A DNA stretch of 64,000 nucleotides from a virus (lineage: Duplodnaviria > Caudoviricetes). How positions within the stretch are numbered: position 1 is the first letter of the stretch; each line of letters opens with the position of its first letter. The DNA lies in the IMG/VR virus record IMGVR_UViG_3300028048_000102, positions 1-64,000 of that record; one strand, written 5' to 3'. A program made the position numbers and the translations under genes. Of this stretch, positions 14,585 to 48,665 are shown piece by piece. Below the pieces are notes generated by a model. The model saw only the letters and a list, made by a program, of their open reading frames with translations, searched no databases and was not told the origin of the DNA.

Positions 14585-14600
14585 TGAGGTGCAATTTAAA

Positions 14601-29363: not shown

Positions 29364-30806
29364 ATGATAAGTAGTAATTTTGAATTAGAAGATAAACTTA
29401 CATATGAAGAACTTGCTCCTTCATTACAAGATATGCTTAAGATTCTTGATACTCTTAATCTTATTATGAATTTAGTAAAAAATGGTACTAATGGTAGAAA
29501 TATCAAAATAGATCCTAAAAAATCTTCATTGTTTGATGATGATGATTTTAGAATTGCTAAGATATCAAATAATCAAATTATGGTATCTGATATAGATATG
29601 GAAGAATGGAGTACAGCAACTGCTCAAACTGAATCAAATGAATCTACCCAAATAATACCTAATAGAATATTCTTATATGATATAGATACTACTGAACTTT
29701 GGTATTATCAAGATTGGAATAATAAATGGTGTATAAGAAAAGATGAAACTATAGATATCAATAATGCTAAGCCTGGTGAAGTATTAAAATTAGATAATAA
29801 TAAGAATATTATATTAGATTCTAATTTTAAACTAAAACGTGTAGTAAAATCTGATAAGGATTTATATGCAGAGGCTAGAAGAAATCCAAAAACGTATAAA
29901 TACAGTGATAATGATTATAATATCTATTTACCAGAGTCTAATAGTTATTATACTACAAATAATATAAATAATTATCCTTCATCAGGAGTTACTGATGAGC
30001 AGGCTTTGAATAATTATTATACTTTATCATCTGATAAAGCTAGTAATAAACTAATATCTAGAACATGGTTATATAATGAGGGAACTCAAAAGTTATTTTT
30101 CTATAAATGTGCTAATGATATATATGAACTTAATACAGTTGTAGATAAAATTACTTTTCATACAATTACTATAATTCAAACTGATAATCAAACTATTTCG
30201 GTTAATTATAATAATAGTGATATAACTACTTCATTTATGATTCCTCATGGATCTCCATTTACTGTATCTATAAAAGCTGATGTTGGTTTCCAAGCAGGTA
30301 CTTTAAATATAACTAGTGGTATAGCTAATAGTGATATTACTATAAGTGCTACTCCTGCATTAGAAATACGTAGAAATCTATATAGTTTCTATACTGGTAT
30401 ATATAGAAATGTAGATGTACAAACTATTAGATGGCATCTTGTATATCCAGACACATCTTATTATGTAAAAAGTGGTAGGGATACATATTATGGAAGAGGC
30501 TTCTATTTCTATGCTGTAGAAGTACCATACAATTGTAAGATAGTTGCATATAGTGGTGGAGTTGCAACTTATGAAAATTCAAGTAGTTATGAAAGTACTG
30601 CTAGAATATTTGCTATGACTCAAGCTACATATAACTATTTAGCTAGTACTGAGTGTGCCATTAACTATCAATATGGTAGACTTACACCTACATACTTATC
30701 ACCTAAATATGCTACTGCTTGGAGTCAAACTGTCTATAAGGGAGACTATTTATGTGCATGGCATCCAGATATATTTAGGTATGTTGAAATAAGAGAAACA
30801 GTATAG
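29364..30806 (+). CDS. Putative tail fibre protein
   Basis: ELAPSLQ N-terminus; TITIIQTDNQTISV..G..AGTLN bacterial repeat-like domain. Confidence 0.55.
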   Translation: MISSNFELEDKLTYEELAPSLQDMLKILDTLNLIMNLVKNGTNGRNIKIDPKKSSLFDDDDFRIAKISNNQIMVSDIDMEEWSTATAQTESNESTQIIPNRIFLYDIDTTELWYYQDWNNKWCIRKDETIDINNAKPGEVLKLDNNKNIILDSNFKLKRVVKSDKDLYAEARRNPKTYKYSDNDYNIYLPESNSYYTTNNINNYPSSGVTDEQALNNYYTLSSDKASNKLISRTWLYNEGTQKLFFYKCANDIYELNTVVDKITFHTITIIQTDNQTISVNYNNSDITTSFMIPHGSPFTVSIKADVGFQAGTLNITSGIANSDITISATPALEIRRNLYSFYTGIYRNVDVQTIRWHLVYPDTSYYVKSGRDTYYGRGFYFYAVEVPYNCKIVAYSGGVATYENSSSYESTARIFAMTQATYNYLASTECAINYQYGRLTPTYLSPKYATAWSQTVYKGDYLCAWHPDIFRYVEIRETV

Positions 30807-30819
30807 GAGATGTATATAA

Positions 30820-31272
30820 ATGAATGTAGAATATGAAATAAATAAAATTCTTGATGAGTTATCCATGATGAAACTTAGAATGGATGCTACTGATAAAACT
30901 ATTGCTAATATTCAAACTCCAGTTATTGCTGGAGATAAAGGAGAATATTTATATATAGATCATGATACATTTGCAATGACTAAAAATATTGTATCTGAAG
31001 CTTTAATCTTAAACAACTCTGATGAATTAAATAATATAACTGACGTAGTAAAAGGAACTATTATAGTTATAAATGAAGACCTTGGATTTAAATATCGTGA
31101 ATATATTGATAATGATGGAAAGAGAACTTATACTTATGATAAGTATATATTATCTGAATACCCTGAGATGTATAATAAATTTTATATAAATACTGCGAAT
31201 AAAGAACTTTGGTTCGTTGGTAAGGATACTAGATATTTAATAAGTGGAATATCTAAAATTATTAATATCTAA
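30820..31272 (+). CDS. Small member of the same modular family
   Basis: GDKGEYLYID and NKFYINTANKELWFV modules. Confidence 0.5.
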   Translation: MNVEYEINKILDELSMMKLRMDATDKTIANIQTPVIAGDKGEYLYIDHDTFAMTKNIVSEALILNNSDELNNITDVVKGTIIVINEDLGFKYREYIDNDGKRTYTYDKYILSEYPEMYNKFYINTANKELWFVGKDTRYLISGISKIINI

Positions 31273-31296
31273 TTAATGAAGGGAGTATAATATATC

Positions 31297-31851
31297 ATGG
31301 GATTTAATAAAGAAGATAAAGTAAGATGGGAAGAATTAGCACCATCTTTGCAAGAAATGTTTAATGGTATTTCTAATTCTATTACGAATTTAGATAATAA
31401 TATTAATATTACTGGAGATAATTCAGTTACAGATATATCTATATCAAATAATGGAACAGAACTTATTTTATATAAAGGCGATGGAACTGTTGAGACTATA
31501 TTAACTATAGATACTGAATTAAATGGTACAAGTACAAATCCTGTACAAAATAAAGCAATTTATGCAGCTATTCAAAGTCTTAGTGCTACTTTAAATGCTA
31601 TAAATTCTAGAATATCTACTTTGGATACTAATATTTCAACTCTGTCCTCATCATTAAATTCATTGACCTCTAGAGTTTCTTCATTAGAATCTAGAATGAA
31701 TTCAGTAGAATCTAGAGCTTCTACTTTGGAATCTAATGTAGCTTCTATAGCTGCTAGAACTTCCTCACTGGAAACTAAAGTAAATAGCAGTAGCGGAGGT
31801 AGTAGCAGTGGTGGTAGCTATGATAATACTCATGGTTGCCCAGGTAAATAA
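31297..31851 (+). CDS. Short coiled-coil fibre protein
   Basis: ELAPSLQ motif, STNPVQNK fibre repeat, heptad coiled coil, Gly/Ser linker, C-terminus HGCPGK. Confidence 0.6.
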   Translation: MGFNKEDKVRWEELAPSLQEMFNGISNSITNLDNNINITGDNSVTDISISNNGTELILYKGDGTVETILTIDTELNGTSTNPVQNKAIYAAIQSLSATLNAINSRISTLDTNISTLSSSLNSLTSRVSSLESRMNSVESRASTLESNVASIAARTSSLETKVNSSSGGSSSGGSYDNTHGCPGK

Positions 31852-31921
31852 TATAATGAAAAATAAAATTACTCATTCCTCCATATTTTATGGAGGAATG
31901 ATTTTTATTAATTAAAGGGGT

Positions 31922-33100
31922 ATGATTATGGTACTTGATGCACTATTTATAATGCTTGGAAAAGAATGTAATGGTAATTGTATTTATTGTGTTCAACATG
32001 ATAAAGAATCTACAGCTAGTGAAGAATACTATAAAGAATTACCTAAAGTAATGAAGAATGAATCAGACATAATAAATTTTATAGTTGATCAAGCTGAAGA
32101 TACTCATGAATCATTAGTAAGAAAGAATATTATAAATGTATATGGCTTACAAATAATGACTCTATATTTTATAGGTGGAGAGCCTTTATTATATTATGAT
32201 ACTATTAAGCATATGATTGAATTGATATCAGAAAAAACTAAGAATATACGATATTCAATTATAACTAATGGTATTCTAATGAATAGAGAAATGAGTAACT
32301 TTTTTAATATATATGATGTATTAGTTAAACTAAGTACTGATGGTAAATCATCTATAAAAACTAGATTGATAGATGTATTTGATAATAAGAGATGTAGAAA
32401 TGCTATATTGAATTGCAATAATCTAAAACTATCTGGAGTAATAACTCCATATTGCTATCCTTTAGAATTGGTAGAAAGTTTTGGAGAGATACATAAAGAA
32501 TATATGACTCGCCATTATAGTACTCCTTCATATAGTTTTTCTCATCTTGTATTTTCTAAAGGATGTAATAAATCATTATTAGAATTAGATTGGGAGCATT
32601 TTGAAAATGATATGTTCCATATTATTGATATATGTAATTCTACTGAAATAAATGATGAGACATATCCTATGTATTATATTTATAATACTTTTTGCAAATA
32701 TATTTCTGAGGGAATTAATACAAATAGAATCCCAATATATGGAGTATGCTATGAAGATTATAATACATTGCATATGGATTTAGATGGCAATCTATATGAA
32801 TGCCATAATAATACTAATCAACTATCTACAATTTATGAGTCATTAGATAATTTCATATCAGAATTATCTAAACTAGATAAAAGAAAGATGGATATTGATA
32901 ATAAATGTGAATCATGCATTGTAAAAAATCTATGTATTGGAATATGCAGACGTGGAGAAGATTATGAAATAAATTGTGAATATATGATTAAATTCTTCGC
33001 TGTATTACAGAATGCATTCTATAGAGGAATCGAAAAGTATAAAGAGCTTAAGAATTTTAATATAAATAAAGCATTAAACTATATTAATTTAAAGGGGTAA
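31922..33100 (+). CDS. Radical SAM/SPASM protein 1
   Basis: CNGNCIYC, GGEP, DGNLYEC, CESC-x5-CIGIC. Confidence 0.9.
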   Translation: MIMVLDALFIMLGKECNGNCIYCVQHDKESTASEEYYKELPKVMKNESDIINFIVDQAEDTHESLVRKNIINVYGLQIMTLYFIGGEPLLYYDTIKHMIELISEKTKNIRYSIITNGILMNREMSNFFNIYDVLVKLSTDGKSSIKTRLIDVFDNKRCRNAILNCNNLKLSGVITPYCYPLELVESFGEIHKEYMTRHYSTPSYSFSHLVFSKGCNKSLLELDWEHFENDMFHIIDICNSTEINDETYPMYYIYNTFCKYISEGINTNRIPIYGVCYEDYNTLHMDLDGNLYECHNNTNQLSTIYESLDNFISELSKLDKRKMDIDNKCESCIVKNLCIGICRRGEDYEINCEYMIKFFAVLQNAFYRGIEKYKELKNFNINKALNYINLKG

Positions 33101-33106
33101 AATAAT

Positions 33107-34120
33107 ATGAATTTAAAAGTTGAAGTTATTTTAGGCAAAGAGTGTAATTTAGATTGTAAGTATTGTAATAATAAGATTATGAAAGTTGGAACTTTATCAA
33201 AAGATGAAGATATTGATATATATGTTTTAGAATTTTTAAAAAGAGTTCCAAATCAGATAGCATTTTATGGTGGAGAACCTTTATTACATTGGGATAGAAT
33301 CGTTAGAATTATTGAATATACTGATTGTGATAGATTTAAGATAGTAACTAATGGATATTATTTAGATGAGGAAAAAGTAAATTTCTTAAATAAATATAAT
33401 GTAGATGTAGTTCTATCTTGGGATGGTCATCTATCTACTGCTAGAAATTATGATGTTATTAAAGATAATAAAAGTAATATATTGAAAATAGATAATCTAA
33501 TGATTACTTCTGTAATTACAACACAGAACTATCTTAAATCATTCTTAGATGAATTAGAAGATGTAGAGAAAGAATATTTTGATATTCATAATAAATACTT
33601 TGATATATATGCTGTTGTAGTAAATGAAAGTGATCAATTTGATATAAAAGATATCAAAGAATTATTTGAATTTGATCTTAATAGATTAAATAGAGAAGCT
33701 CAATATGTATGTGATCATTACAATGATAAAATATCATATAAAGTATTTATAAACACTTTGAAATTATTATACGATTTTGAAACTGTAAAGAATGTTCCTG
33801 GTTGCTTATATGGATATAATAGAATAGCTATAGATCTAAAAGGAAATTACTATGCATGCTTAGATCTTGACCTTAGTTATATCAATGATAAAAATATAAT
33901 CAATACTTCAGTTACTGATGCATTAAATCTAATAAATAAAGTTGATAAGTATCCTAGTAGATATGAAGATATGTGTAAAAAGTGTAATGTTATAGATATA
34001 TGTAAACATGGATGTTCATATTTATCTAAAGAACAATTAGAAACTACATATTGCCCACCTAGAAAAGCGTTATATACTCCTATAATAGAATTTTTAAATA
34101 AATTAGAAGATGAAGAATAG
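33107..34120 (+). CDS. Radical SAM/SPASM protein 2
   Basis: CNLDCKYC, GGEP, GNYYAC, CKKC-x5-CKHGC. Confidence 0.9.
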   Translation: MNLKVEVILGKECNLDCKYCNNKIMKVGTLSKDEDIDIYVLEFLKRVPNQIAFYGGEPLLHWDRIVRIIEYTDCDRFKIVTNGYYLDEEKVNFLNKYNVDVVLSWDGHLSTARNYDVIKDNKSNILKIDNLMITSVITTQNYLKSFLDELEDVEKEYFDIHNKYFDIYAVVVNESDQFDIKDIKELFEFDLNRLNREAQYVCDHYNDKISYKVFINTLKLLYDFETVKNVPGCLYGYNRIAIDLKGNYYACLDLDLSYINDKNIINTSVTDALNLINKVDKYPSRYEDMCKKCNVIDICKHGCSYLSKEQLETTYCPPRKALYTPIIEFLNKLEDEE

Positions 34121-34166
34121 TGTATAATTATACCCTAGACGAAATGTCTAGGGTATATTTTTCGAA

Positions 34167-34178
34167 AACATTTTAATA
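34167..34178 (+). promoter_or_regulatory. Putative late promoter AACA-N6-TA
   Basis: AACA-TTTTAA-TA upstream of rSAM 3; matches the AR9-type late consensus. Confidence 0.45.
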
Positions 34179-34207
34179 ATCAAGAAGAAAAATGAGGGGG
34201 ACTATGT

Positions 34208-35209
34208 ATGGATATAGAACTCGTTTTAGGTAAAGAGTGTAATTTAAATTGTGCTTATTGCCATAATAAAGAAATGCATATAGATAGTATAGATGCTGAT
34301 AATATTCCAATATCAACATTAGATTTTTTAAAGAGAGTTCCAACTAAGTTAACGTTTTATGGTGGAGAGCCTTTAATGTATTGGGATCATATACATAAAA
34401 TATTAACTGAGTATTATAATCCAAACTGTCATTATTATTTAATTACAAATGGATATTACTTGAATAAAGATATTGCTAAAGTACTAAATGAGTGCAATGT
34501 TACTGTTTATATTTCTTATGATTGTAATATAAGTTACAGAGGTTATGATGTAATTGAAGAGAATAAGTATAATATTATGTATCTAAATGATATGGCTATA
34601 ATGGGAACTACTAATTCTCAAGATTATTTTAAATCTTTACTTGATAAATTAAATAGATTGGAAGAAGAATATTTCTTTAGTCATAATAAGTATTTCAATA
34701 TTTATATTGATTTCATCAATAAGTTTGATGATACTAATAAAAATGTGAAATATAATGATATAGCTAACTATGATCTTAGTACATTAGAAGCAGAAGCTAA
34801 ATACATTTGTGATCATTATAATTCTTATACATCTTATAAGATGTTTTTAGATAGTCTAAAAGAAATGTATGATGATGAGATTATACCTAGCAGTCCATCT
34901 TGTAGATACGGCTATAATAAGACTGTAATAGATTTATTTGGCAATTATTATGCATGCTTAGATGATGACGATAATAATAATTGTAATATAATAAGCAACT
35001 CTGTTGATGATGCATTGAACTTATTAAAGAAAAAAGATAAATATAAAGATAGATATACTACTATATGTGCTGAATGTAATGTTAGAAAAATATGTAAGAA
35101 TGGATGTAGCTACTATACTAAAGAAGACTTAGAACAGTATTATTGCCCACCTAGAAAAGCATTTTATGCTCCTATAATAGAATTTTTTAAAAATAAATTA
35201 AAAGATTAA
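34208..35209 (+). CDS. Radical SAM/SPASM protein 3 (close paralog of protein 2)
   Basis: CNLNCAYC, GGEP, CAEC-x5-CKNGC; shares YCPPRKA with protein 2. Confidence 0.9.
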   Translation: MDIELVLGKECNLNCAYCHNKEMHIDSIDADNIPISTLDFLKRVPTKLTFYGGEPLMYWDHIHKILTEYYNPNCHYYLITNGYYLNKDIAKVLNECNVTVYISYDCNISYRGYDVIEENKYNIMYLNDMAIMGTTNSQDYFKSLLDKLNRLEEEYFFSHNKYFNIYIDFINKFDDTNKNVKYNDIANYDLSTLEAEAKYICDHYNSYTSYKMFLDSLKEMYDDEIIPSSPSCRYGYNKTVIDLFGNYYACLDDDDNNNCNIISNSVDDALNLLKKKDKYKDRYTTICAECNVRKICKNGCSYYTKEDLEQYYCPPRKAFYAPIIEFFKNKLKD

Positions 35210-35222
35210 GGAGGGATATAAG

Positions 35223-35618
35223 ATGGCTAGTACATCAATTAGAAATGTAATTCTGGAATTTAATGCAGAAGATAAAATTAGATGGCAAGAATTGGCACCA
35301 TCATTACAAGCTATGATTAATGGAATATCTAATTCTGTTAATTTAGTGAATAGTAATTTAGAAGATATAAGTGATAGAATATCTGCTTTAGAGAATAGAG
35401 TTTCAGTAATAGAATCTATAATCAATAGTGGTGGTGGAAGCAGTAGTGGTGGTGGAGGTGCTTATATACTTCCAACGGCTACTAATAATGTTTTAGGCGG
35501 AGTCAAAGTAGGAGAAGGTTTATCCATATCTCCAGAAGGTGTATTGAATATATCTGGTTCAGAATCTGGCGATACATATGATATTGCTGAAGATGGAATA
35601 GCTGATCAATTGATTTAA
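35223..35618 (+). CDS. Short fibre protein
   Basis: ELAPSLQ, coiled coil, Gly linker, YILPTAT..LGGVKVGEGL fibre repeat. Confidence 0.65.
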   Translation: MASTSIRNVILEFNAEDKIRWQELAPSLQAMINGISNSVNLVNSNLEDISDRISALENRVSVIESIINSGGGSSSGGGGAYILPTATNNVLGGVKVGEGLSISPEGVLNISGSESGDTYDIAEDGIADQLI

Positions 35619-35684
35619 TTATTTTTGGGTAATATTCCATTATTGGATATATTATTATAGATTAAAAGGAAGGAGAGATGCTAT

Positions 35685-36410
35685 ATGGCACTCACAGAAG
35701 CCCAACTTGCAAAAATTGCAAGAATTAAAGACTTGCAGACACTCGCTACAAAGGTTAAGACACTTTTTAACTCATCTGTAACAAGCGTTGATCTTGCTAA
35801 AGATACAACTGCCACTGAAGGGTATGCAGCAAGTTACACCTTGAGTGTTAACGGTACTCCTCTTAGTACCAAGATTAACATTCCTAAGGATTTCCTCGTA
35901 AAATCTGCTACTTTGGCAACTGTATCAACTGCTGATACTCCTTATACTGGAGCAGCAATTGGTGATAAGTACATTGATTTCGTTATCAATGCTAAGGACG
36001 CCTCTGATGGTACTGGTGCAGAGCACATTTATCTGCCTGTAAGTGATCTCGTAGATACTTATACTGCAGGTAACGGTCTTTCTTTGAGCAGCGGTGCATT
36101 TAGTGTAGCTATTGATAGTACTAATGCTAACGGTCTGTCCGTAAGTGCTAGTGGTCTGGCTTTGGCAACTGCTACTGCTTCTACTAGTGGTACTGGTGGT
36201 TCCAACGGTGCTATGTCCGCAACCGATAAAGAGAAGTTGAATGGTATTAGCACTCAGGCAACCAAGACAACTGTAACTACTGAAAAGGCTGGTACTATTG
36301 AAATCGATGGTGTATCTAAGGTTATTGTTGATATTGCTACAGATTCCGATGTTACTGCTATGATGGATGAAGTTTTCCCTTCTAGCTCAGGTGGCGGCAC
36401 TGGAGAATAA
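35685..36410 (+). CDS. Fibre-like virion protein
   Basis: Ala/Thr/Ser-rich; YTAGNGL and GAMSATDKEKLNGI fibre repeats. Confidence 0.65.
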   Translation: MALTEAQLAKIARIKDLQTLATKVKTLFNSSVTSVDLAKDTTATEGYAASYTLSVNGTPLSTKINIPKDFLVKSATLATVSTADTPYTGAAIGDKYIDFVINAKDASDGTGAEHIYLPVSDLVDTYTAGNGLSLSSGAFSVAIDSTNANGLSVSASGLALATATASTSGTGGSNGAMSATDKEKLNGISTQATKTTVTTEKAGTIEIDGVSKVIVDIATDSDVTAMMDEVFPSSSGGGTGE

Positions 36411-36489
36411 TAAGTTATAACCAAAAAAAAAACTGAAAGGGACTAAATAGTCCCTTTCTTTTTTTTTAGAAAGTAGTGGTGTAAATAAT

Positions 36490-37833
36490 ATGGCAAATAC
36501 GATCATTACGCTAGAACAACTAGAATATATTTTATTAGAATTAAAAGATTATATTGATAATAATGCAGGTACCACTATTGGCTGGGATTATGTGCTTAAT
36601 AAGCCAGTATCTTTCCCGCCATCAAGTCATACCCATGATGATAGATATTATACAGAGGATGAAGTAGATACTTTACTATCTGGCAAGTCTGATACTGGTC
36701 ATACACATAGTCAGTATTTAACTGAGCATGCTACTGTAGATGATGCTTTAAGTGCTACTAGTACTAACGCAGTACAAAATAAAGTAGTTCAAGCAGCATT
36801 GGCTGATAAGTCTGATACTGGCCATACTCATGATAATAGATATTACACAGAGAATGAAGTAGATACATTATTAGATGGTAAGTCTGATACTGGTCATACT
36901 CATAGTCAATATTTGACTGAACATGCTACTGTAGATTCAGCTTTAAGTTCTACTAGTACTAATGCTGTACAAAATAAAGTTATAAATACAGCATTAGCTG
37001 GAAAGGCAGCTAGTGATCATACTCATAGCCAGTATTTAACTGCTCATGCCCCTGTAGATTCAGCATTATCAAGTACTAGCACCAATGCTGTACAAAATAA
37101 AGTTATAAATTCAGCTCTAGCTGGCAAGTCTGATACTGGTCATACTCATAGTCAGTATTTAACTGAACATCAAGATATTTCTGGTAAAGCTAATACAAGT
37201 GGAACTTATCCTAGTTTAATATCTGGAGGAGTTAGAGATTATAACAATGGATCTACTATCACTTTTGGATATTCAACTGCTGGAATGACTTCTACATCAT
37301 GGTTAGCATCTTGGGATGGATATAGATTAAGAGCTATAGCACCCGCAAATGTTTCTGCTGGTTATGCATCTACGGCTGGTACTGCTAATTCAGCATATTA
37401 TGCTGACTATGCAGAGTTTTTCCCTCGTGGAGAAGAAACAGAAGTTGGAGATATTATTGCACTTGATGAATTTTCTGAAGATGAAAAGTATGTTAAAGCA
37501 ACTGAAAACTCTATATGTGTAATTGGAGTTCATTCAGAGGATTATGGTATAATTGTTGGTGGTGAAAACCCTAAAGATGATATAGTAACAAGAGATAATT
37601 ATTTTAAATATAATATTTCTAAATATATTCCTGTAAGTTTAGCAGGACGTGTTCCTGTTAAGTTTAAAGGTATATCTCATAAAGGTGTAAGAGTAGTACC
37701 TTCTGAAATACCTGGAGTTGGTAGAGCTTTTGATGCAACTAAAGATGATAGAGATTCTATTATAGGCTATCTTGTAGAATCTGATAATGGAGATAACGAA
37801 GAAATAAGATTACTTAAAATGAAAATAAAGTGA
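36490..37833 (+). CDS. Tail fibre with HxH repeats and C-terminal intramolecular chaperone (peptidase G2-like) domain
   Basis: KPVSFPPSSHTHDDRYYTE; repeated KSDTGHTHSQY/STSTNAVQNKV; ADYAE..GDII..IGV..PVSLAGRVPVK. Confidence 0.8.
   Translation: MANTIITLEQLEYILLELKDYIDNNAGTTIGWDYVLNKPVSFPPSSHTHDDRYYTEDEVDTLLSGKSDTGHTHSQYLTEHATVDDALSATSTNAVQNKVVQAALADKSDTGHTHDNRYYTENEVDTLLDGKSDTGHTHSQYLTEHATVDSALSSTSTNAVQNKVINTALAGKAASDHTHSQYLTAHAPVDSALSSTSTNAVQNKVINSALAGKSDTGHTHSQYLTEHQDISGKANTSGTYPSLISGGVRDYNNGSTITFGYSTAGMTSTSWLASWDGYRLRAIAPANVSAGYASTAGTANSAYYADYAEFFPRGEETEVGDIIALDEFSEDEKYVKATENSICVIGVHSEDYGIIVGGENPKDDIVTRDNYFKYNISKYIPVSLAGRVPVKFKGISHKGVRVVPSEIPGVGRAFDATKDDRDSIIGYLVESDNGDNEEIRLLKMKIK
36628..37170 (+). 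repeat. Intragenic fibre repeats (about 41-aa unit x3, plus HTHD(D/N)RYYTE x2)
   Basis: AAGTCTGATACTGG and GTACAAAATAAAGT recur at the DNA level. Confidence 0.8.
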
Positions 37834-37843
37834 GGTAATAATT

Positions 37844-38965
37844 GTGGGGAAATTTTTGAATTTAGGTTGTAATACATTGATGTTTATAATGGGGCAGGGA
37901 TGTAATCTTAGTTGTTCATACTGTTTAAAACATACTCTAATAAATGAGCAGTTACCTGTAAACGTATCTCCAGTAATTTTTGAATATTTGGATTTCTTAG
38001 CTGAAGAAGGTACTTGTCCAATTAATTGTAACTACTTTGGTGGAGAACCTCTTGTTTATTATGATGGCGTTAAATCTATTGTAGAGCATTGCAATCAAAT
38101 AGAACAAAGACTAGATAAAAAGATTTTTCACCACTCAATGATTTCAAATGGAAAGTCACTTAATGAAGAAATAGTAGAGTTTCTTAATAAAAATAACTTT
38201 GCTTATACTATAAGCTGGGATGGTAATAATAGTATAGAAACTAGAGGATATGATGTTATAGAAGACAAGTTTGATTTATTACTAAAAATAAATAATCTTG
38301 GAATATCATCTGTGATATCTTCTAAGTCGTATCCTCTAGATGTAGTAAATGCAATGCAGAAATTTGATGATGAATATTTTGCTAAGAACAATAGCCATGT
38401 TCGTTGTAATTTTGATGATATAATGGATACTGGTGTTGGAGTTGAAAATCAAGAACTATGCAAAATTGATCCTGAGAGATTTGAATCAGATATTCAAAAG
38501 ATTTTTGATATGTATGAAGAAGATGTATTAAGTAATCAGACTTTATTAAATAAATATCATGTTGCTATAAGATACTGTATGAATAATATTAACTCAATTA
38601 AACATTATCTAAAAGAAGGACCTAATAAAATTTCTAGATGTGGTCAAGGATTGGAAGTTTTAAATCTTGATATGTCTGGAAAAATTTATGATTGTCATAA
38701 CGTTACTACAGGTGAAATTGGGCATTTGCAGTATGATAGTATTCCATTTATTAGAAATATAATAGCTAGTGAATATAAAACTATGCATAGAATAAATACT
38801 ATTTGTAAAGATTGTCAAGCTATATCACTTTGTGGTGGTGGATGTAAATATGTAGAAGATGAAAGAATAGGCACTTCTTGCATGCAGAGTATTATCAAAT
38901 TCAATGTGATTTCAGATAGATTAATAAAGTTAGCAGAGAAAGTTGGTGAAGCAAGTGGCTGTTAA
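37844..38965 (+). CDS. Radical SAM/SPASM protein 4
   Basis: CNLSCSYC, FGGEP, GKIYDC, CKDC-x5-CGGGC. Confidence 0.9.
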   Translation: MGKFLNLGCNTLMFIMGQGCNLSCSYCLKHTLINEQLPVNVSPVIFEYLDFLAEEGTCPINCNYFGGEPLVYYDGVKSIVEHCNQIEQRLDKKIFHHSMISNGKSLNEEIVEFLNKNNFAYTISWDGNNSIETRGYDVIEDKFDLLLKINNLGISSVISSKSYPLDVVNAMQKFDDEYFAKNNSHVRCNFDDIMDTGVGVENQELCKIDPERFESDIQKIFDMYEEDVLSNQTLLNKYHVAIRYCMNNINSIKHYLKEGPNKISRCGQGLEVLNLDMSGKIYDCHNVTTGEIGHLQYDSIPFIRNIIASEYKTMHRINTICKDCQAISLCGGGCKYVEDERIGTSCMQSIIKFNVISDRLIKLAEKVGEASGC

Positions 38966-39308
38966 TGGTGCAATATCTAAAACAAGTTTTACTGACCAAA
39001 GTTCTTTAGCAGATAGTGTAACATCTGTTAAAGCTAAAACTGTTCATATAAATGAATTAAGAACTGCTGTTGATACTTTAACAAGTGCTAGTGCAAATGT
39101 GGATAATTGTGGTAATTGTACTTTTTGCCAAGGAAATCAAAGTAATCAAAATTGCCAAACAGATGGATGTGAAGGATGTCAAACTTCTTATAATCAATCT
39201 TGTGAAACTTGTCAAACCTGTCAAAATGCCACTTTAAATCAATCTAATCAAGCAAATCAAAGTAATCAAGGATATAATTATAATAGTTGTCAATCAAATC
39301 GTCGTTAA
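38955..39308 (+). CDS. Cys/Gln/Asn-rich repeat protein A (candidate rSAM substrate/precursor)
   Basis: GTG 38955 after GGTGA; Cys-free N-terminal region, then 10 Cys in (C/N)-(Q/E)-x repeats. Confidence 0.75.
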   Translation: MAVNGAISKTSFTDQSSLADSVTSVKAKTVHINELRTAVDTLTSASANVDNCGNCTFCQGNQSNQNCQTDGCEGCQTSYNQSCETCQTCQNATLNQSNQANQSNQGYNYNSCQSNRR

Positions 39309-39324
39309 GGTGAGGTGATATAGA

Positions 39325-39762
39325 ATGGCTTATACAGATACTATAACGACAGGTACTCAAGTTAAATTAGTACATGCTAAAGAATTAAAAGAGCAAATGG
39401 AAACACTTGCTACTAATGCAAGCGTATCAGTTTCTTTTACTGGATGGGGTACTTCAAAACCAACAAAAGTTAATATGGAGCTTTTACAAAATGCATGTAA
39501 TAAATTAGAAGACGAATTTTCTTATAATTGTTGTCAGAATGATTGTTGTCAAACAAATCAGTCAAATTGTAAAAATCAATCTGTATTAAATCAAACTAAT
39601 CAAACTTGTGAAACTGCTGCTTGTGAATCTTCAACTTGTCAAACTAATCAAAAAGATCAGGCATGTCAATCTTATACTAATCAAGGTAATTGCTCATCAT
39701 ATAATCAAAGTTGTCAAAATAATATGTCTTGCGGTGGCTGTGGCGGTTGCGGTGGTATGTAA
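39325..39762 (+). CDS. Cys/Gln/Asn-rich repeat protein B (candidate rSAM substrate/precursor)
   Basis: GAGGTG RBS; 15 Cys, CQT/NQS repeats, ends CGGCGGCGGM. Confidence 0.75.
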   Translation: MAYTDTITTGTQVKLVHAKELKEQMETLATNASVSVSFTGWGTSKPTKVNMELLQNACNKLEDEFSYNCCQNDCCQTNQSNCKNQSVLNQTNQTCETAACESSTCQTNQKDQACQSYTNQGNCSSYNQSCQNNMSCGGCGGCGGM

Positions 39763-39785
39763 TTGTAATTAAAGAGGTATAATAT

Positions 39786-40856
39786 ATGTTTAATTTTGGT
39801 AGTTATAGGCTTAAAATTATACTAGGTAGTGCTTGTAATTTACATTGTAAATATTGTGAGCAAAATAGTAATATATGTAAGTTACCAGAAGTTATATCTA
39901 GTAATTTATTACACTATTTGAAATGGATTAACGGGTTTAATGAAAGAACTAGAATTCAATTTTTTGGCGGAGAACCATTACTTTATTTAGATAAAATAAA
40001 ACAACTTGTACAGTTTATAGAGAAAGAAAATCTAAATAACTTTGCGTTAGATATACCAACTAATGGTAAATTACTTACAGAAGAAATCATTGATTATTGT
40101 AATAAACATAACATAGTTTTATGCTTATCTTGGGAAGGTAAAAATACTAAATTAGATAGAGGATATGATGTTATAGAAGATAAAAAAGACTTAATTTTTA
40201 AAATAAAAAATTTAGCTTTTTCGAGTGTATGGACAAAAAATTCTTTACCATTTGATGCTTTAAGTGATGTTCAAAATATTCTAAATGATTATAGAATACA
40301 AACTGGATTAAATTATAGAATAAATGCTAATTCATTATTTATGTGTGATTTATCTGGTAATAATTCTTTAAATATATATGATTTAAATATTTTAACGGAA
40401 CAATATAAGAAAATATTTAAAGTATATAAAGAATATATGAATAATCATTCTCAGGAATATTATGAAAATAATAGATTAATAATAGAATATGTACAATATT
40501 TAATTTCAACTATTCGAAAAGAATTACAAAATCCTACAAAAAATGCTTGGTGTGATTCTATTGTAGACACTTTAAATTTAGATTTAGATGGTAATATTTA
40601 TAAATGCCCTTTATTATTAAATGAGCCTATAGGTAATGTAATAACTGATTCAAATAGAGTATTATTACAAAACTATGCTTATTCTGAATTAAATATTATG
40701 AATCGTAGAGAGAATATGTGTAAAGATTGTGCAGCTCATGTTATATGCCGTGGTGGTTGTAAAGAAGTATCTAATAAAAATATTGAATCGAATTGTAAAT
40801 TATGGAAAGGTTTATTTGAAATAATTTATAATGAGATAATAAGTATAAGTTCATAG
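39786..40856 (+). CDS. Radical SAM/SPASM protein 5
   Basis: CNLHCKYC, FGGEP, DGNIYKC, CKDC-x5-CRGGC. Confidence 0.9.
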   Translation: MFNFGSYRLKIILGSACNLHCKYCEQNSNICKLPEVISSNLLHYLKWINGFNERTRIQFFGGEPLLYLDKIKQLVQFIEKENLNNFALDIPTNGKLLTEEIIDYCNKHNIVLCLSWEGKNTKLDRGYDVIEDKKDLIFKIKNLAFSSVWTKNSLPFDALSDVQNILNDYRIQTGLNYRINANSLFMCDLSGNNSLNIYDLNILTEQYKKIFKVYKEYMNNHSQEYYENNRLIIEYVQYLISTIRKELQNPTKNAWCDSIVDTLNLDLDGNIYKCPLLLNEPIGNVITDSNRVLLQNYAYSELNIMNRRENMCKDCAAHVICRGGCKEVSNKNIESNCKLWKGLFEIIYNEIISISS

Positions 40857-40866
40857 AGGTGTTTTA

Positions 40867-41892
40867 ATGCTATCACCAAATTTTGATACTATTTATTTAA
40901 TGCTTGGATTTGATTGTAATGCTAGTTGTAAATATTGTTTACAAAAAGGTATTCAAAAATCTTTATCTACAGAAATAAATGAAGATATAATAGATTTTAT
41001 ATCAAGTTTTAACAATAAAAATTTTCTAGTTACTTTTATTGGTGGTGAACCTTTATTATATTGGGATAAAATTAAATATATTGTACAAAAAGTACATAAT
41101 AAAAAGGTTTATTCAAAGTATAGAATATTTACTAATGGATTGCTACTAGATAATGAGAAAATAGAATTTCTAAATAAAAATGATTTTAATGTTTCATTAT
41201 CATGGGATGGTATAAATACTAATCAAACTAGATCGTTTGATATATTTTCTATGAATAGTAAAATATTGAATATCAAAAATTTGCTAATAAATTCAATTCT
41301 TACTAAATACTCTTATCCTAGCGATATTATAGATGGAGTTATTAAGATAAATGAAAAGTATAAGAAAATTCATGGATATAATTTAAGAATGCATATAGAA
41401 CCATTTTGTGATACTGGTACTTGTAATCAAGATTCTCTTAATAATATGGACTATAATAAGTTATATGAAGAAATCTATAATTTAACTACTAAAGTTTTAA
41501 ATAATAATGGGGAAGATTTAATATATCAAGAATTTATCTTAGATAAGTTAAATAAAATAACTAATGGATTGAAATATGATCCAGTTATTAGTAGAGGCGG
41601 TTGCAAATGTGGTTGGAATCATCTAAATATGGATCTACAAGGTAATTTATATAGATGCCATAATACCATACAGTTAGTTGGAAATATAAATGATACCTTA
41701 GATATGTATTATAAAAAATTATCACAAGTAGATACTAGAAAAAGGGATACGAGATGTAGTGATTGTGAAGTAAGATGGCTTTGTCAAGGTGGATGTAAAA
41801 CAGTACCTGAAGAATTAGAAGAAAAATATTGCGAAGTTCAAAAAGCCTATTATATAGGATTTTATAAAGCTTTAGAAGACTGGGGGAAATAA
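40867..41892 (+). CDS. Radical SAM/SPASM protein 6
   Basis: CNASCKYC, GGEP, GNLYRCH, CSDC-x5-CQGGC. Confidence 0.9.
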   Translation: MLSPNFDTIYLMLGFDCNASCKYCLQKGIQKSLSTEINEDIIDFISSFNNKNFLVTFIGGEPLLYWDKIKYIVQKVHNKKVYSKYRIFTNGLLLDNEKIEFLNKNDFNVSLSWDGINTNQTRSFDIFSMNSKILNIKNLLINSILTKYSYPSDIIDGVIKINEKYKKIHGYNLRMHIEPFCDTGTCNQDSLNNMDYNKLYEEIYNLTTKVLNNNGEDLIYQEFILDKLNKITNGLKYDPVISRGGCKCGWNHLNMDLQGNLYRCHNTIQLVGNINDTLDMYYKKLSQVDTRKRDTRCSDCEVRWLCQGGCKTVPEELEEKYCEVQKAYYIGFYKALEDWGK

Positions 41893-41893
41893 T

Positions 41894-42994
41894 GTGTTAG
41901 GGTATAGTTTTGAAAGCGTTTATTTAATGCTAGGCTCAGATTGTAATGCAAATTGTTCTTATTGTTTGCAAAAGGGTAATACTAAAAAACAAAAATTTCC
42001 AGATAAATTGAATTATAAAGTAATTGACTTTATTGAGTTAATGGCTTCTAGATATTATGAATCACAAGAAAATACTCCAGTAAATAATAGAAAATATTTT
42101 TGGGTAACTTACTTTGGTGGAGAACCATTATTAAAATTTGATTTGATAAAAGAAGTAAATGAAGAACTTTTAAAAAGAGGAGTTATTTTTAGAAGTTCTA
42201 TAATAACTAATGGGTTATTATTAGATGAAGATAAAGTAAATTATTTCAATAAACATAATTTTGTTGTAGCACTTTCGCATGATGGGCTATACTCTAAGAA
42301 AAATAGAGGATATAATGTATTTGAAATAGTTGATTCTAATGTGATTATGAAAATAAATAGGTTAGCACTTAATGCAGTGCTAACTGTTAATTCTTATCTT
42401 GATGATATTATAGAAGATTATTTGAATATAAATGAGAAGTATAGTGAAGTTCATAATTATAATATTGAAATGAATATAGAAACTTTCTTAGATACTGGAA
42501 GTTGTAATCAAGAAAAGTTAGATGATTTTGACTATGATAAATTATATAATCAATCTTATAATTTAATGATGAAATATGCTAAAGGAAATTATAATGATAA
42601 AACTTTACCATCAAATAATTTAATATCAAAATATATCAAAGAATTTATATTAAAAGTAAAAAATAATATAAATTCCACTCCAGAAAGGGGTGGATGTTAT
42701 TGTGGCCGAAAGGTATTAAATTTAGATTTAGATGGTAATTTGTATAGCTGTCATAATTCAAGTTTCCCTATAAGTAGAATAGAAGATAGTATAAATGATT
42801 ACTTTATTAATCTAGGATGTGCAGATAGACGAGTAAATGTTCCTCCATGTGAAGATTGTTATGTAAAGTTCCTTTGTGTTGGAGGATGTAAAATGGTTCC
42901 TGAAGAACTAGATGAAAAATACTGTAAGATGCAAAGAGCTTTTTATGGTGGATTTATAAAAGCTTTATGCGATTGGGGTGAAAATTGTGATTAA
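41894..42994 (+). CDS. Radical SAM/SPASM protein 7 (close paralog of protein 6)
   Basis: CNANCSYC, FGGEP, GNLYSCH, CEDC-x5-CVGGC; shares DTG.CNQ and VPEEL.EKYC with protein 6. Confidence 0.9.
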   Translation: MLGYSFESVYLMLGSDCNANCSYCLQKGNTKKQKFPDKLNYKVIDFIELMASRYYESQENTPVNNRKYFWVTYFGGEPLLKFDLIKEVNEELLKRGVIFRSSIITNGLLLDEDKVNYFNKHNFVVALSHDGLYSKKNRGYNVFEIVDSNVIMKINRLALNAVLTVNSYLDDIIEDYLNINEKYSEVHNYNIEMNIETFLDTGSCNQEKLDDFDYDKLYNQSYNLMMKYAKGNYNDKTLPSNNLISKYIKEFILKVKNNINSTPERGGCYCGRKVLNLDLDGNLYSCHNSSFPISRIEDSINDYFINLGCADRRVNVPPCEDCYVKFLCVGGCKMVPEELDEKYCKMQRAFYGGFIKALCDWGENCD

Positions 42995-43529
42995 TTATTA
43001 TCTTAAGTTGGGAAAGGTTATTAAAGGTAAAAAATTAGATAATAATTACTATATTGGAACTAATTTTGTTTATGAATCTGAACAAGAACCAGAGAAACAT
43101 AAACAATTATACCATGGTAATTATTTAATAATGGATACATGGGGTGATAATTGGTTTTTAAAATTACCATATGATAATGCTAGTGGAAGTGTTCTTTTAA
43201 GTGGTTTAGGATTAGGTGTTTTACCTAATTTATTATTAACTAAGACAGAAGTAACAGAAATATTAATAGTTGAAAAAGAAAAATCTATTATTGATTATAT
43301 AAAACAATATATAGATTCTGATAAAGTTAATTATATTTGGATGGATATAAGAGATTATCATCCAGATAAAGAATTTGATTATTGTTTTATTGATATTTGG
43401 TGTGACGAAAATAGAAAAGAAAGAGAATCAGATGAGAAAATATTACTTGAAAATCTTTCATCATATTGTAAGAGAATTGATTTTTGTCAAACTTTAGAAG
43501 AAGCTAAAAAATATTGTGGGGAGGAATAA
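42978..43529 (+). CDS. Class I SAM-dependent methyltransferase (spermidine-synthase-like fold)
   Basis: VLLSGLGLG motif I, ILIVE, FDYCFIDIW. Confidence 0.75.
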   Translation: MKIVINYYLKLGKVIKGKKLDNNYYIGTNFVYESEQEPEKHKQLYHGNYLIMDTWGDNWFLKLPYDNASGSVLLSGLGLGVLPNLLLTKTEVTEILIVEKEKSIIDYIKQYIDSDKVNYIWMDIRDYHPDKEFDYCFIDIWCDENRKERESDEKILLENLSSYCKRIDFCQTLEEAKKYCGEE

Positions 43530-43532
43530 ATT

Positions 43533-44150
43533 ATGGCATATGGTGAATGGTTACCAAAATTAAATCCACAGTATGGTGGATTTGAAGATGGTGATGTAAT
43601 AGCTTATGAAGAAAGAGATAATATAGTTGGATATAGAAAAGCTAATTCCAATGATAAGTTTATTATTGGTGTAGTTTGTAATGGCTGTACTGCATTTAGT
43701 CATACAGAACCAAATCCATTCTTTTATGATTCTGCTGGTAATGAAATAGAATTTAAAGATAATCAGGAAAAAACTTCATATGGATTTATTCCTGTAGCTT
43801 TAAATGGTATTGTTAGAGTCAAATTCAAAGGCGAATTTGTTTCTGGTGGATTAGTGTGTATGTCTGATGTACAAGGAGTATCAAGATTACAAACTAATCC
43901 TGATACTGAAGTAGCTTTTGGTAAACTCTTAAATGATATAAGTCCTAGTGAAGGTGAAGAAGAATCAATAAGATATGTAGATATAATACTATTAGATAAT
44001 AGTATTCTTACTAAAATTGATAATACAGATCAGGAAACTGAAGCTTTAATTGCTGAGAACAAAGAATTAAAGGAGCAAGTTTCTGAGCTTAATGATGCAT
44101 TATTAGAAGTAATGTTTGGTTCAGAAGAGGAATCTTTTGATGAATTATAA
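43533..44150 (+). CDS. Stand-alone peptidase-G2-like chaperone domain with C-terminal coiled coil (tail fibre assembly)
   Basis: YGEW..GDVI..IIGVV..IPVALNGIVRVK, similar to the C-terminus of 36490; ends ELNDALLEV. Confidence 0.6.
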   Translation: MAYGEWLPKLNPQYGGFEDGDVIAYEERDNIVGYRKANSNDKFIIGVVCNGCTAFSHTEPNPFFYDSAGNEIEFKDNQEKTSYGFIPVALNGIVRVKFKGEFVSGGLVCMSDVQGVSRLQTNPDTEVAFGKLLNDISPSEGEEESIRYVDIILLDNSILTKIDNTDQETEALIAENKELKEQVSELNDALLEVMFGSEEESFDEL

Positions 44151-44164
44151 GGAGTTGTTAAATT

Positions 44165-44329
44165 ATGGCAAGTTTTTTGGCAAGAAATCTTATTGCAGGT
44201 AAAATCAAATGGTCTCAGATTGAGAATTCTAAGACTTATGCTAAGTATGCGGATGCTACACTTGTAATACTGGAAGAACAAGGTTACATAATTGATGAAA
44301 ATGGTAATTGTGTACCAGCCTCTAACTGA
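44165..44329 (+). CDS. Small phage tail-module protein (CD1375/XkdX-like position), 54 aa, not in ORF track
   Basis: AAGGAG RBS; MASFLARNLIAGKIKW...; typical position after a fibre-assembly gene. Confidence 0.55.
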   Translation: MASFLARNLIAGKIKWSQIENSKTYAKYADATLVILEEQGYIIDENGNCVPASN

Positions 44330-44408: not shown

Positions 44409-44434
44409 TCCCTCTACCCAATTGGGTAGAGGGA
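44409..44434. terminator. Bidirectional CCCTCTACC-family hairpin
   Basis: Between convergent units; TCCCTCTACCCA-AT-TGGGTAGAGGGA. Confidence 0.7.
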
Positions 44435-46256: not shown

Positions 46257-47132
46257 ATGAAATTAAAAGGTAAGACTGGAGGATCTTGGTCAAAGATCGT
46301 AGAGTTTAATAAAGGAGAATACATTCATAAATTTAGTGCTCGAGCAATTCAGTTTGCTGATCCAAGTTTTGTATTAAAGCATGAAATTATTAGTATCGAT
46401 GGTACTGAGAAATATGTAAACAAATTTATATTTGCAATTTATGATATCAATGTAATAGAAAGATATGATGTATCTTTATTCATTGATCATCACAAAGATC
46501 TTCATAATTATAAGGATATCTTAACAACTAATCTTCTTTACTATATAAATAGAAGAAAGAAAATATTAGAAAAAGTTCATCCTAGAATGACCAATGAAGA
46601 ATTATATGAGGCTGTAAAAAGTTCGAAGAATAGGTTCTCAGCAGATTTTATAATATATAGTACTAAAGAAGGAGATAAAGGAGATAGAAAAGTACGAATA
46701 TCTTTAGCTAATATAGAAATATATAGCAAAAAGTATTACTTAGTTGCAGTTCAAATTAAAACTAAAGATGGTTGGGACTTAAAATCAATTTCATATGGCG
46801 GAAGAGCATTTAAATTGGTAGATGCTAAGAATGGAATTATAAATGTACCAGATGCTATCTTCCATTATAGTAATGGGAAACTAATTGCTTCTCCAGTATT
46901 TATTGGATATGAGAATGGATACATTAATGGATACATGAGAAAGAAATTAGAAGAATTAGTTAATGTAGCAATAGATTACATGAAAGAAAAAGGTAAAGAA
47001 AAACCATTCCTTAAGCTTAGAACTGATTATCGTGATTATGATACATATGTATATGGTATTCCTAAGTATGATAAAACTAAGCTTGCTAAAGAACTCAGAT
47101 TGGATAATGAAAGCTGGGTTTTGCCATTTTAA
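46257..47132 (+). CDS. Hypothetical basic protein
   Basis: AGGAGG RBS, early promoter. Confidence 0.7.
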   Translation: MKLKGKTGGSWSKIVEFNKGEYIHKFSARAIQFADPSFVLKHEIISIDGTEKYVNKFIFAIYDINVIERYDVSLFIDHHKDLHNYKDILTTNLLYYINRRKKILEKVHPRMTNEELYEAVKSSKNRFSADFIIYSTKEGDKGDRKVRISLANIEIYSKKYYLVAVQIKTKDGWDLKSISYGGRAFKLVDAKNGIINVPDAIFHYSNGKLIASPVFIGYENGYINGYMRKKLEELVNVAIDYMKEKGKEKPFLKLRTDYRDYDTYVYGIPKYDKTKLAKELRLDNESWVLPF

Positions 47133-47187
47133 TAATATTTATATCCCAGAGCTTTATGCTCTGGGAATATATTTAGGAGGAATTAAT

Positions 47188-47910: not shown

Positions 47911-47923
47911 AGGAGAAAATAAT

Positions 47924-48652: not shown

Positions 48653-48665
48653 AGGAGAAAATAAT

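Follow-up and report, generated by a model that had tools for sequence, protein, structure and literature searches.

Radical SAM/SPASM enzymes paired with cysteine-rich proteins beside the tail fibre genes of a phage and of many unrelated phages

Radical S-adenosylmethionine (rSAM) maturases with a SPASM domain have been described for peptide natural products and for a small number of cellular proteins. Here we describe seven such enzymes encoded among the tail fibre genes of a phage, in a 64,000-nucleotide stretch of the IMG/VR virus record IMGVR_UViG_3300028048_000102 (positions 1 to 64,000; henceforth the window), together with two cysteine-rich proteins, CysA and CysB, encoded between them. 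Many unrelated phages also encode this pairing of enzyme and Cys-rich partner next to their tail fibres. An initial annotation of the region knew of no characterized counterpart in a jumbo phage. Nor is this phage a special case: most often the system takes the form of a module with two enzymes, found in temperate siphophages of gut Negativicutes. In the reading that we favour, and in which our confidence is evenly balanced, SPASM maturases devoid of a RiPP (peptide made by the ribosome and modified after translation) recognition element (RRE) introduce cross-links into fibre-associated proteins, in their Cys-rich cores or tails, and the products are protein-sized and probably parts of the virion, not exported peptides.

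The seven enzymes are listed here with their best matches and with their counterparts in L184, a related contig:
31922..33100, +: rSAM1; PF04055 35.1 bits, SPASM 29.1, PapB model 72.5; L184 orthologue 90% identical
33107..34120, +: rSAM2; phrog_1802 at 1.2e-27; L184 orthologue 92% identical
34208..35209, +: rSAM3, a lineage-specific duplicate of rSAM2 (52% identity); missing from L184
37844..38965, +: rSAM4, by position the orthologue of "rSAM-A", which adjoins the fibre in other phages (34-45% identity to P0002-P0007; same place in loci L001-L009); PapB model 106.8 bits
39786..40856, +: rSAM5; L184 orthologue 44% identical
40867..41892, +: rSAM6; single L184 orthologue, 58% identical
41894..42994, +: rSAM7, a duplicate of rSAM6 (46% identity); one L184 gene stands for rSAM6 and rSAM7

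All seven exceed the gathering score of Pfam PF04055 (Radical_SAM; 33.6-49.7 bits against 29.5), and in their alignment the CxxxCxxC motif, which starts at residue 16-24, and GGEPL are invariant. So are seven further Cys in the arrangement C-x12-G-x4-C ... C-x2-C-x5-C-x3-C ... C, the full SPASM set, in every one of the enzymes. The SPASM seven-Cys motif, C-x9-15-G-x4-C ... C-x2-C-x5-C-x3-C ... C, holds two auxiliary 4Fe-4S clusters. The SPASM model TIGR04085 (cut-off 27) is exceeded by rSAM1, 2, 4, 5 and 6, while rSAM3 reaches 25.7 and rSAM7 lacks the model among the matches listed. By motif and profile we assign all seven to the radical SAM superfamily and its SPASM subfamily, with cluster binding predicted. 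The initial annotation had recognized these seven genes and their motifs, and its GNxYxC motif is right as a position but reads G[NK]xYxC as letters, since rSAM4 has Lys. It had also noted that no RRE precedes the catalytic domain. Indeed, with the cluster motif at residue 16-24 there is no space for one, and no N-terminal RRE was found in any of the seven, the match to CteB beginning at CteB residue 96, past the RRE of that enzyme. Pairwise identity among the seven is 24-34%, except for the two pairs already named as close paralogues, rSAM2/rSAM3 and rSAM6/rSAM7. When rSAM1, 2, 4 and 6 were submitted to PHROG, rSAM2, rSAM4 (1.8e-28) and rSAM6 (9.2e-28) fell into phrog_1802, and rSAM1 gave no match to that family. 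Taken together, the sequences point to a phage-specific, phrog_1802-like, RRE-less clade.

The nearest characterized relatives of the enzymes are CteB, PapB and QhpD, formers of Cys thioethers, as had been proposed. For all seven, the best NCBIfam model is that of the PapB ranthipeptide maturase (NF047865), although scores of 50.7-106.8 bits against a cut-off of 340 leave them outside the PapB family. Next in rank come QhpD, the SCIFF maturase and nif11-type maturases, all far under their curated cut-offs: the SCIFF maturase CteB model TIGR03974 gives 54-90 bits (at most 90.4 among the matches listed) against 425, and the anaerobic sulfatase maturase model TIGR03942 gives 27-58 bits against 349, so that neither family includes them. 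Weak matches extend to cyclophane-forming and HxsB/C models and, for rSAM4, rSAM6 and rSAM7, to TIGR04115 (CXXX-repeat maturase). A profile of the seven searched against the PDB retrieved CteB (5WGG, E 3.8e-33) at the top, 8VPO second and the anaerobic sulfatase-maturating enzyme (anSME) 4K37 third. Placement by hidden Markov model (HMM), the check suggested at the outset, thus ranks thioether maturases highest, but with scores below every family cut-off. We take these relationships to argue with moderate strength for thioether chemistry.

The two Cys-rich open reading frames (ORFs) lie directly between rSAM4 and rSAM5:
38955..39308, +: CysA; structured N-terminal domain with the helix VHINELRTAVDTL and, after it, NVDNCGNC; [C/N]-Q-[S/T] triplets make up the core that follows
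39325..39762, +: CysB, paralogous to CysA, with two helices and the motif NCCQxxCCQT; core CQx/NQx, tail CGGCGGCGGM

Both share a layout in which a leader-like N-terminal domain precedes a core of C-Q-[S/T/G] triplets. The start of CysA given in the initial annotation, 38955 (GTG, MAVNG...), agrees with the orthologues better than the mechanical TTG start at 38943, and both ORFs are real genes, each with more than 100 homologous clusters elsewhere. Homologues of CysA form 110 representative clusters. Clustering at 90% identity yields at least 254 groups for the CysB family, to which Megasphaera and Acidaminococcus genomes as well as gut "Siphoviridae sp." records contribute; one CysB cluster alone, carried by Megasphaera and Acidaminococcus genomes, is indexed in 2328 assembly-collection blocks. 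Neither protein matched a family in Pfam, NCBIfam or PHROG, and the SCIFF, CcpM, CefA and CXXX precursor families of NCBIfam gave no match to either. As a lead, the protein Atlas places a viral cluster, 52% of whose members carry PF27846, near CysB at a score of 0.83, under the 0.9 threshold. Pattern scans of IMG/VR that started from rSAM4 or CysB as a single protein gave no match, and a tblastn search of a CysB orthologue against phage records gave no match, for which the low-complexity filter is the likely cause; the IMG/VR relatives were recovered by alignment-based scans.

In an AlphaFold2 (AF2) model of CysA built on 22 homologues, residues 11-50 have a predicted local distance difference test score (pLDDT) of 75-89, whereas the core, predicted to be disordered, stays below 50. 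A confident N-terminal domain and helix before a disordered core is, in this model, as expected of a recognition element followed by an unmodified core. The predicted complex of rSAM4 with CysA weakly supports their association (ipSAE 0.44 against 0.00 for the best control; runs sharing at least 21% of contacts, partner pLDDT at least 32). The ipSAE mark is reached by 58 of 80 solved complexes and by 2 of 110 mismatched pairs, and values of 0.60 or less include just 7 of the mark-passing solved complexes but both passing mismatches.

Gene order argues strongly that these enzymes and Cys-rich proteins are partners. The genes rSAM-A, CysA and CysB adjoin in the window, in the Negativicutes prophages (L001-L009) and in L184, and rSAM-A lies directly upstream of CysA-CysB in all 47 IMG/VR CysB loci with upstream sequence (two further loci end at the 5' side and hence fall outside this count). 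Around clade members in 66 loci, many of them interrelated and so not independent, 108 of 464 ORFs within 3.5 kb carry the Cys feature, compared to 5 of 674 further away. The contigs that carry rSAM4 relatives at 34-45% identity resemble temperate siphophages, and their genes are arranged as follows:
tape measure, Dit and Tal-like genes; 207-aa and 112-aa proteins; fibre with a C-terminal domain of the type of window ORF 36490
rSAM-A, CysA, CysB; small Hint-like protein and ~275-aa protein
a second, different enzyme, "rSAM-B", and ~225-aa protein; holin and amidase

In the Negativicutes prophages, the 207-218 aa protein encoded upstream of the fibre (L001:7597-8220, L002:1160-1816) ends in CxCxC(G/S)DD like the prophage's own CysA and CysB, giving three proteins per prophage with a common tail.

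As independent cases we count only loci with different backbones, namely the window with L184 and the following:
L010: rSAM-A fragment, double-LamG-CysA protein, X-CysB protein and ThiF; NrdD, with four further rSAM domains next to it
L126, L150: two rSAM-A genes and a 301-aa protein with a CysA N-terminal domain and a (CQx)n region
L121, L144, L152: CysA and CysB with 2-4 rSAM genes
L141, L153 (211-224 kb contigs): fibre, protein with a Cys/Asp-rich tail, rSAM-A, more fibres
L155: fibre ending DCNCQCDCGDDTGGP, Hint-like protein, 272-aa protein, rSAM-B, 220-aa protein, rSAM-A, another fibre
L137: fibre ending NNCNCNCNCGSDHSH, then five rSAM-like ORFs, four of which match the profile

In L010, CysA and CysB modules thus stand beside at least five rSAM domains. 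The same locus encodes, at 4144-4812, a ThiF/E1-like adenylating enzyme between the Cys-rich fusion proteins and the run of four rSAM domains, a hint that in some versions of the system a C-terminus is chemically activated.

Cultured phages encode comparable arrangements:
Achromobacter phage 2-1 (L182:3670-5112): 480-aa fibre-like protein in which ...ANCNCDCNCS is followed by CFPAGT, the start of a Hint domain; rSAM two genes downstream, before the endolysin
Ralstonia phage RSP15: "side tail fiber" ending NCQCGN, three genes upstream of an rSAM
Ralstonia phages RP12 and RP31: three annotated rSAM genes after YomR-like fibre genes

RP12 is a phiKZ-like jumbo phage whose rSAM genes are ORF076, 077 and 079 (L183, record 84042-89152), with the hypothetical ORF078 among them and the MgoB-like ORF080 next; no Cys-rich partner was found at the RP12/RP31 locus. 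The phrog_1802 phages as a group (Achromobacter JWF and 2-1, Ralstonia RSP15 and RP12/RP31) resemble ours in the broad enzyme family and in having rSAM genes beside tail or fibre genes, but they form a sister clade with generic annotation (in JWF, "anaerobic sulfatase-maturating enzyme"). The rSAM genes of Campylobacter phage CP220 were considered as the same system and rejected, at ~22% identity and among nucleotide/sugar genes. The initial proposal was to fall if such enzyme arrays never lay beside Cys-rich ORFs; it survives, because the synteny of rSAM, Cys-rich and fibre genes that it called for is conserved in many phages.

The Cys repeats themselves recur in larger proteins. Modules of the CysA/CysB type serve as the C-terminal domain in LamG and other proteins 300-530 aa long, and a profile search for CysA-module fusions placed LamG lectin domains on the N-terminal side and Hint domains on the C-terminal side. 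Common to all contexts is an amphipathic helix (for example VHITELRTAIERLQSYA, LDDVLKKLTSYAHSHT and LIDIINYLMEKSHSHT) followed within few residues by a Cys repeat, either (CQx)n, (CN/CD)n or both. The initial annotation had left the product as virion appendages or peptides, and because the same repeats are found as NCxCxCGDD-like C-terminal fibre tails and in LamG fusions, we favour the appendage and not the peptide. A Hint/intein-like domain directly follows a CNCNCS-type tail in the phage 2-1 fibre protein and in the CysA-Hint fusions P0245, P0253, P0256 and P0268. In other phages the Hint domain takes the place equivalent to the fibre C-terminal domain, after the Cys tail; the window has no Hint domain. 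This placement suggests an autoprocessing step, with predicted autocleavage, that would expose or activate the Cys-rich C-terminus.

The evolutionary relationships of the enzymes tie them to the same fibre-adjacent family. In a quick maximum-likelihood tree (IQ-TREE), one supported clade (SH-like approximate likelihood ratio test, SH-aLRT, 97) unites all seven window enzymes with the fibre-adjacent rSAM-A genes, leaving rSAM-B, the Achromobacter/RSP15/RP12 group and QhpD outside. Within the clade the seven are not monophyletic: rSAM2 and rSAM3 are sisters, as are rSAM6 and rSAM7, both recent pairs; rSAM4 falls together with P0002 and P0004. The closest locus, L184, is a 14-kb contig of 27% G+C with the gene order of the window and five enzymes, rSAM3 being absent and a single gene replacing rSAM6 and rSAM7. 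Conservation between window 29364-44150 and L184 is strikingly uneven. While rSAM1 and rSAM2 are 90-92% identical, the adjoining fibre genes are 56-77% identical and the block rSAM4-CysA-CysB-rSAM5-rSAM6-42978-43533 only 44-58%; the last nine residues of ORF 31297, DNTHGCPGK, are identical in a protein that is 61% identical as a whole. We read the ORF 31297 tail with rSAM1 and rSAM2 as a putative conserved unit, and the block from rSAM4 onward as a putatively co-diverging enzyme-substrate cassette. By analogy, the uneven pattern looks mosaic or diversifying, as in host-range cassettes.

The enzyme genes are interleaved with fibre genes and flank the Cys-rich ORFs, as first annotated. Their neighbours are:
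31297..31851, +: coiled-coil fibre-like protein (Pfam DUF7310 coiled coil); GS linker; sole Cys in the C-terminal tail DNTHGCPGK; terminator-like hairpin 3'
35223-35618 and 35685-36410, +: Cys-free fibre-like proteins, both with L184 orthologues
36490..37833, +: tail fibre (Pfam PTR, "phage tail repeat like") with HxH repeats and a C-terminal autochaperone-like domain (about 37345-37833)
42978..43529, +: small protein with a class I methyltransferase/spermidine-synthase-like fold (phrog_15480, 1.7e-9; Atlas leads); L184 orthologue 49% identical
43533..44150, +: stand-alone fibre C-terminal (autochaperone-like) domain with a C-terminal helix, by alignment and BLAST to fibre C-termini

ORF 35223 has an N-terminal motif in common with ORF 31297 and matches a PHROG tail fibre family. 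The C-terminal 150 aa of fibre 36490 are 51-53% identical to the fibre C-termini of the prophages, and this domain travels together with the rSAM-Cys module. It weakly matches the phi29 gp12 fragment 3GQH (sequence E 0.052, Foldseek E 6e-3), as does ORF 43533 (template modelling score, TM, 0.4), whose matches are hints only because its AF2 model is of low confidence (pLDDT 59.9). Fibre 36490 further contains four to five repeats SDTGHTH(S/D)xxY...TSTNAVQNK with HxH motifs, in which Cys is not involved. HxH motifs bind metal in phage fibres, for example in T4 gp37. The fibre-like ORFs of the region hold 0-1 Cys each; therefore, if the chemistry is Cys-based, the sole targets would be CysA, CysB and the tail of ORF 31297, the last of these possibly a further substrate on account of its conserved DNTHGCPGK end. 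The "methyltransferase" of the initial annotation, ORF 42978, is supported only in part, by its PHROG match and by the spermidine-synthase-like leads of the Atlas; it matched nothing in Pfam or NCBIfam and has no proven part in the system, although it lies in the same putative operon and is syntenic in L184.

Every gene between 25.3 and 44.3 kb is on the + strand, and terminator-like hairpins, which are enriched here (16 sites against 3.8 expected), split the region into four units:
unit 1, +: genes up to ORF 31297; hairpin-bounded
unit 2, +: rSAM1 and rSAM2; hairpin-bounded
unit 3, +: rSAM3 and ORFs 35223 and 35685; hairpin-bounded
unit 4, 36490-44329, +: putative operon of fibre 36490, rSAM4, CysA, CysB, rSAM5, rSAM6, rSAM7, 42978 and 43533
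44409-44434, +: strongest terminator-like hairpin, closing the putative operon
31873-31901, 34129-34157 and 36435-36458: other terminator-like hairpins

The record that holds the window is 95.6 kb long and estimated to be 38% complete, and the window (G+C ~29%) encodes multisubunit RNA polymerase beta-like proteins, a UvsX-like recombinase, an NAD ligase and a DNA polymerase. On these grounds the jumbo phage first suggested is plausible, with a genome of roughly 250 kb. We take its source to be the rumen. DNA of the region is present in bovine gut metagenomes from several studies and in bioreactor metagenomes, all anoxic settings, with no RNA dataset among the listed sequencing runs that contain it, and when the region was compared by megablast with 50,697 phage records there was no match. 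Elsewhere in the window, a 317-aa ORF (22502-23455, +) matches a MazF-like growth inhibitor PHROG at residues 25-189 and an acetyltransferase PHROG at 208-310, and is a toxin-GNAT fusion. Tandem paralogous ORFs of ~270-295 aa occupy 46257-49502, two of them (47032-47910 and 47852-48652) sharing the near-identical C-terminus YCFDN[DR]LFKNIDQL, and two unrelated-looking ORFs, 12228-12872 and 14538-14834, end in the double-Cys tails ...CFYCC and ...CLHCC.

How might such a system work? In the mechanism that we propose, the helix N-terminal of the Cys stretch would serve as the docking element for the RRE-less SPASM enzymes, which would act on the disordered Cys-rich cores and tails of CysA, CysB and possibly the DNTHGCPGK tail of ORF 31297. 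Radical chemistry would join Cys sulfur to carbon in thioether (ranthionine-type) links, for example onto the Gln, Glu, Asp or Asn that accompanies each Cys. Since Gln follows Cys directly in 86% of the CxxC units of the CysB family, CQxCQ gives overlapping C-x3-Q spacings, comparable to the C-x3-D/E units of PapB, which we would tentatively take as acceptor assignment; the CxCxCGDD tails could supply Asp or Asn acceptors. As for the order of events, the fibre would fold, its C-terminal helper (autochaperone-like or Hint) would be released, and the Cys-rich end left behind would then be stapled. The products would stay uncleaved and protein-sized and would most probably form or cap virion fibres, and their covalent staples, being independent of oxidation, would suit an anoxic, protease-rich habitat. 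We hold a virion location and a stabilizing role with moderate strength; the fusions and fibre tails favour the former. More broadly, and with somewhat less than even confidence, we suggest that tailed phages, especially those of anaerobes, staple their receptor-binding fibres by thioether links made by dedicated rSAM enzymes, that rSAM4-7 with CysA and CysB constitute a fast-diverging host-range or stability module, and that the Cys repeat plus helix is a recognition tag that is portable, borne by fibres and by LamG proteins and also placed before Hint domains.

Known systems resemble parts of this scheme. CteB is likewise a radical SAM enzyme with a full SPASM domain and the best solved-structure match, and its SCIFF substrates have CQ[ST]-type Cys repeats in the core; the window enzymes, by contrast, lack an RRE, their candidate substrates are proteins of 100-530 aa or fibre tails and not 45-aa peptides, and the context is that of a phage fibre. 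With PapB and freyrasin, whose model is the top NCBIfam hit and aligns end to end over its 330 positions, they have in common a repetition of Cys in which the fourth residue further along bears a carboxamide or carboxylate (CQxCQ, CxCxCGDD), but the acceptor here would mostly be Gln or Asn instead of Asp or Glu, and the link type is predicted from sequence. QhpD/QhpC and CrpC/CrpA are alike in that SPASM enzymes cross-link Cys of a protein-sized partner encoded next door; they are cellular enzyme-subunit or archaeal systems, whereas ours is viral, without an RRE, rich in paralogues and tied to fibres. CrpC is reported to put ranthionine cross-links on the Cys-rich protein CrpA and is listed with a predicted RRE (PMC13692751), so that protein-sized SPASM substrates have precedent. 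The CXXX-repeat target family (PF27846/TIGR04115) differs in period, which is 3 here (C-Q-x) and not 4. Searches of the accessible literature found no description of this fibre-linked rSAM system; one report mentions a cyanophage radical SAM gene only as an "antibiotic synthesis gene" (PMC12801897).

Several observations weigh against the stapling of fibre-associated proteins. Most supporting loci come from one prophage lineage, so the independent observations are far fewer than the loci, and that the Cys-rich proteins are modified and present in virions is inferred from sequence and context, in this phage and its relatives alike. The likeness of the fibre tails to CysA lies at the level of pattern only, and we claim a shared pattern and not homology because the tails of the L137, L155 and phage 2-1 fibres escape detection by the CysA and CysB HMMs. 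Seven enzymes are set against two or three candidate substrates, and the window repeats carry Asn at many Cys positions, which fits a plain ladder of Cys cross-links less well. No Cys-rich neighbour was detectable for the clade members in L160 and L161, nor for the distant arrays of Ralstonia RP12 and L164, so the enzyme family may have other substrates. The distant arrays also fit the idea that the Cys-rich proteins bind metal or Fe-S, like metallothionein, and serve as fibre or assembly factors, while the rSAM enzymes act on a different target such as fibre proteins, a small molecule or the envelope of the host; repeats of CxxC and CxC are well known for ligating metal, and fibre 36490 has the HxH repeats of known metal sites. 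We regard it as very improbable, given that rSAM-A adjoins Cys-rich genes nearly everywhere, across different backbones, that enzyme and Cys-rich genes diverge together in L184, and that Asn often stands at Cys register positions, which is hard to square with metal ligation.

Two other explanations retain the enzymes and their partners but change the reaction or the product. Because all named-maturase scores lie far below their curated cut-offs (50-107 against 340 bits for PapB, for example), such profile scores cannot transfer the chemistry with confidence, and anSME is also a good structural relative in the PDB profile search; the same enzymes could therefore act on the same substrates by sactionine (S-C-alpha) or C-C/cyclophane formation, epimerization or anSME-like Cys oxidation. 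The weak cyclophane and HxsB/C matches, the deep divergence of the paralogues (24-34%), which fits different reactions in different enzymes, and the richness of fibre 36490 in HxH/Tyr repeats are in keeping with this. We nevertheless consider it unlikely, as the top-ranked models and structures are all Cys-thioether formers and the conserved feature of the partners is Cys itself; the anSME substrate motif C/S-x-P/A-x-R is absent from CysA and CysB, and its two matches in fibre proteins are both off the conserved Ser/Cys positions. A true phage RiPP, with CysA and CysB as leader-core precursors whose cores are freed at lysis as bacteriocin-like or signalling peptides without a structural role, would account for the leader-like domain before a Cys-rich core, for the SCIFF-like look of that core (CQTSCQS-like) and for the position of the prophage module between tail and lysis genes, a frequent "moron" site. 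It is, in our estimation, distinctly improbable. No exporter or protease family matched any ORF scanned between 25363 and 44150, as the initial annotation had observed, and no protease, exporter or immunity gene was found at any locus examined; the same modules are C-terminal domains of the LamG and other proteins, and fibre tails; the genes run in the direction of the fibre gene, and the intergenic gaps between them hold no terminator-like hairpin; and CysA and CysB match no NCBIfam precursor family. A "RiPP-like system" in the sense of leader-cleaved exported peptides finds no support in these loci, and we return to RRE-less maturases that act on fibre-associated proteins as the best explanation.

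Our findings confirm the initial observations and partly support their interpretation, in the sharper form of a widespread, unannotated, fibre-linked rSAM maturation system and not a peptide natural-product cluster. If this is true, virion-directed maturases would be a new class of phage structural modification, a viral post-translational modification without described precedent, and would account for the rSAM genes long noted in the cultured phages Achromobacter JWF and 2-1 and Ralstonia RSP15, RP12 and RP31; it would also put a name to a very common unannotated module of human and animal gut prophages. RRE-less enzymes that recognize a short helix-plus-repeat element could become protein-stapling tools, and the system is directly testable, since cultured phages and inducible prophages carry it.

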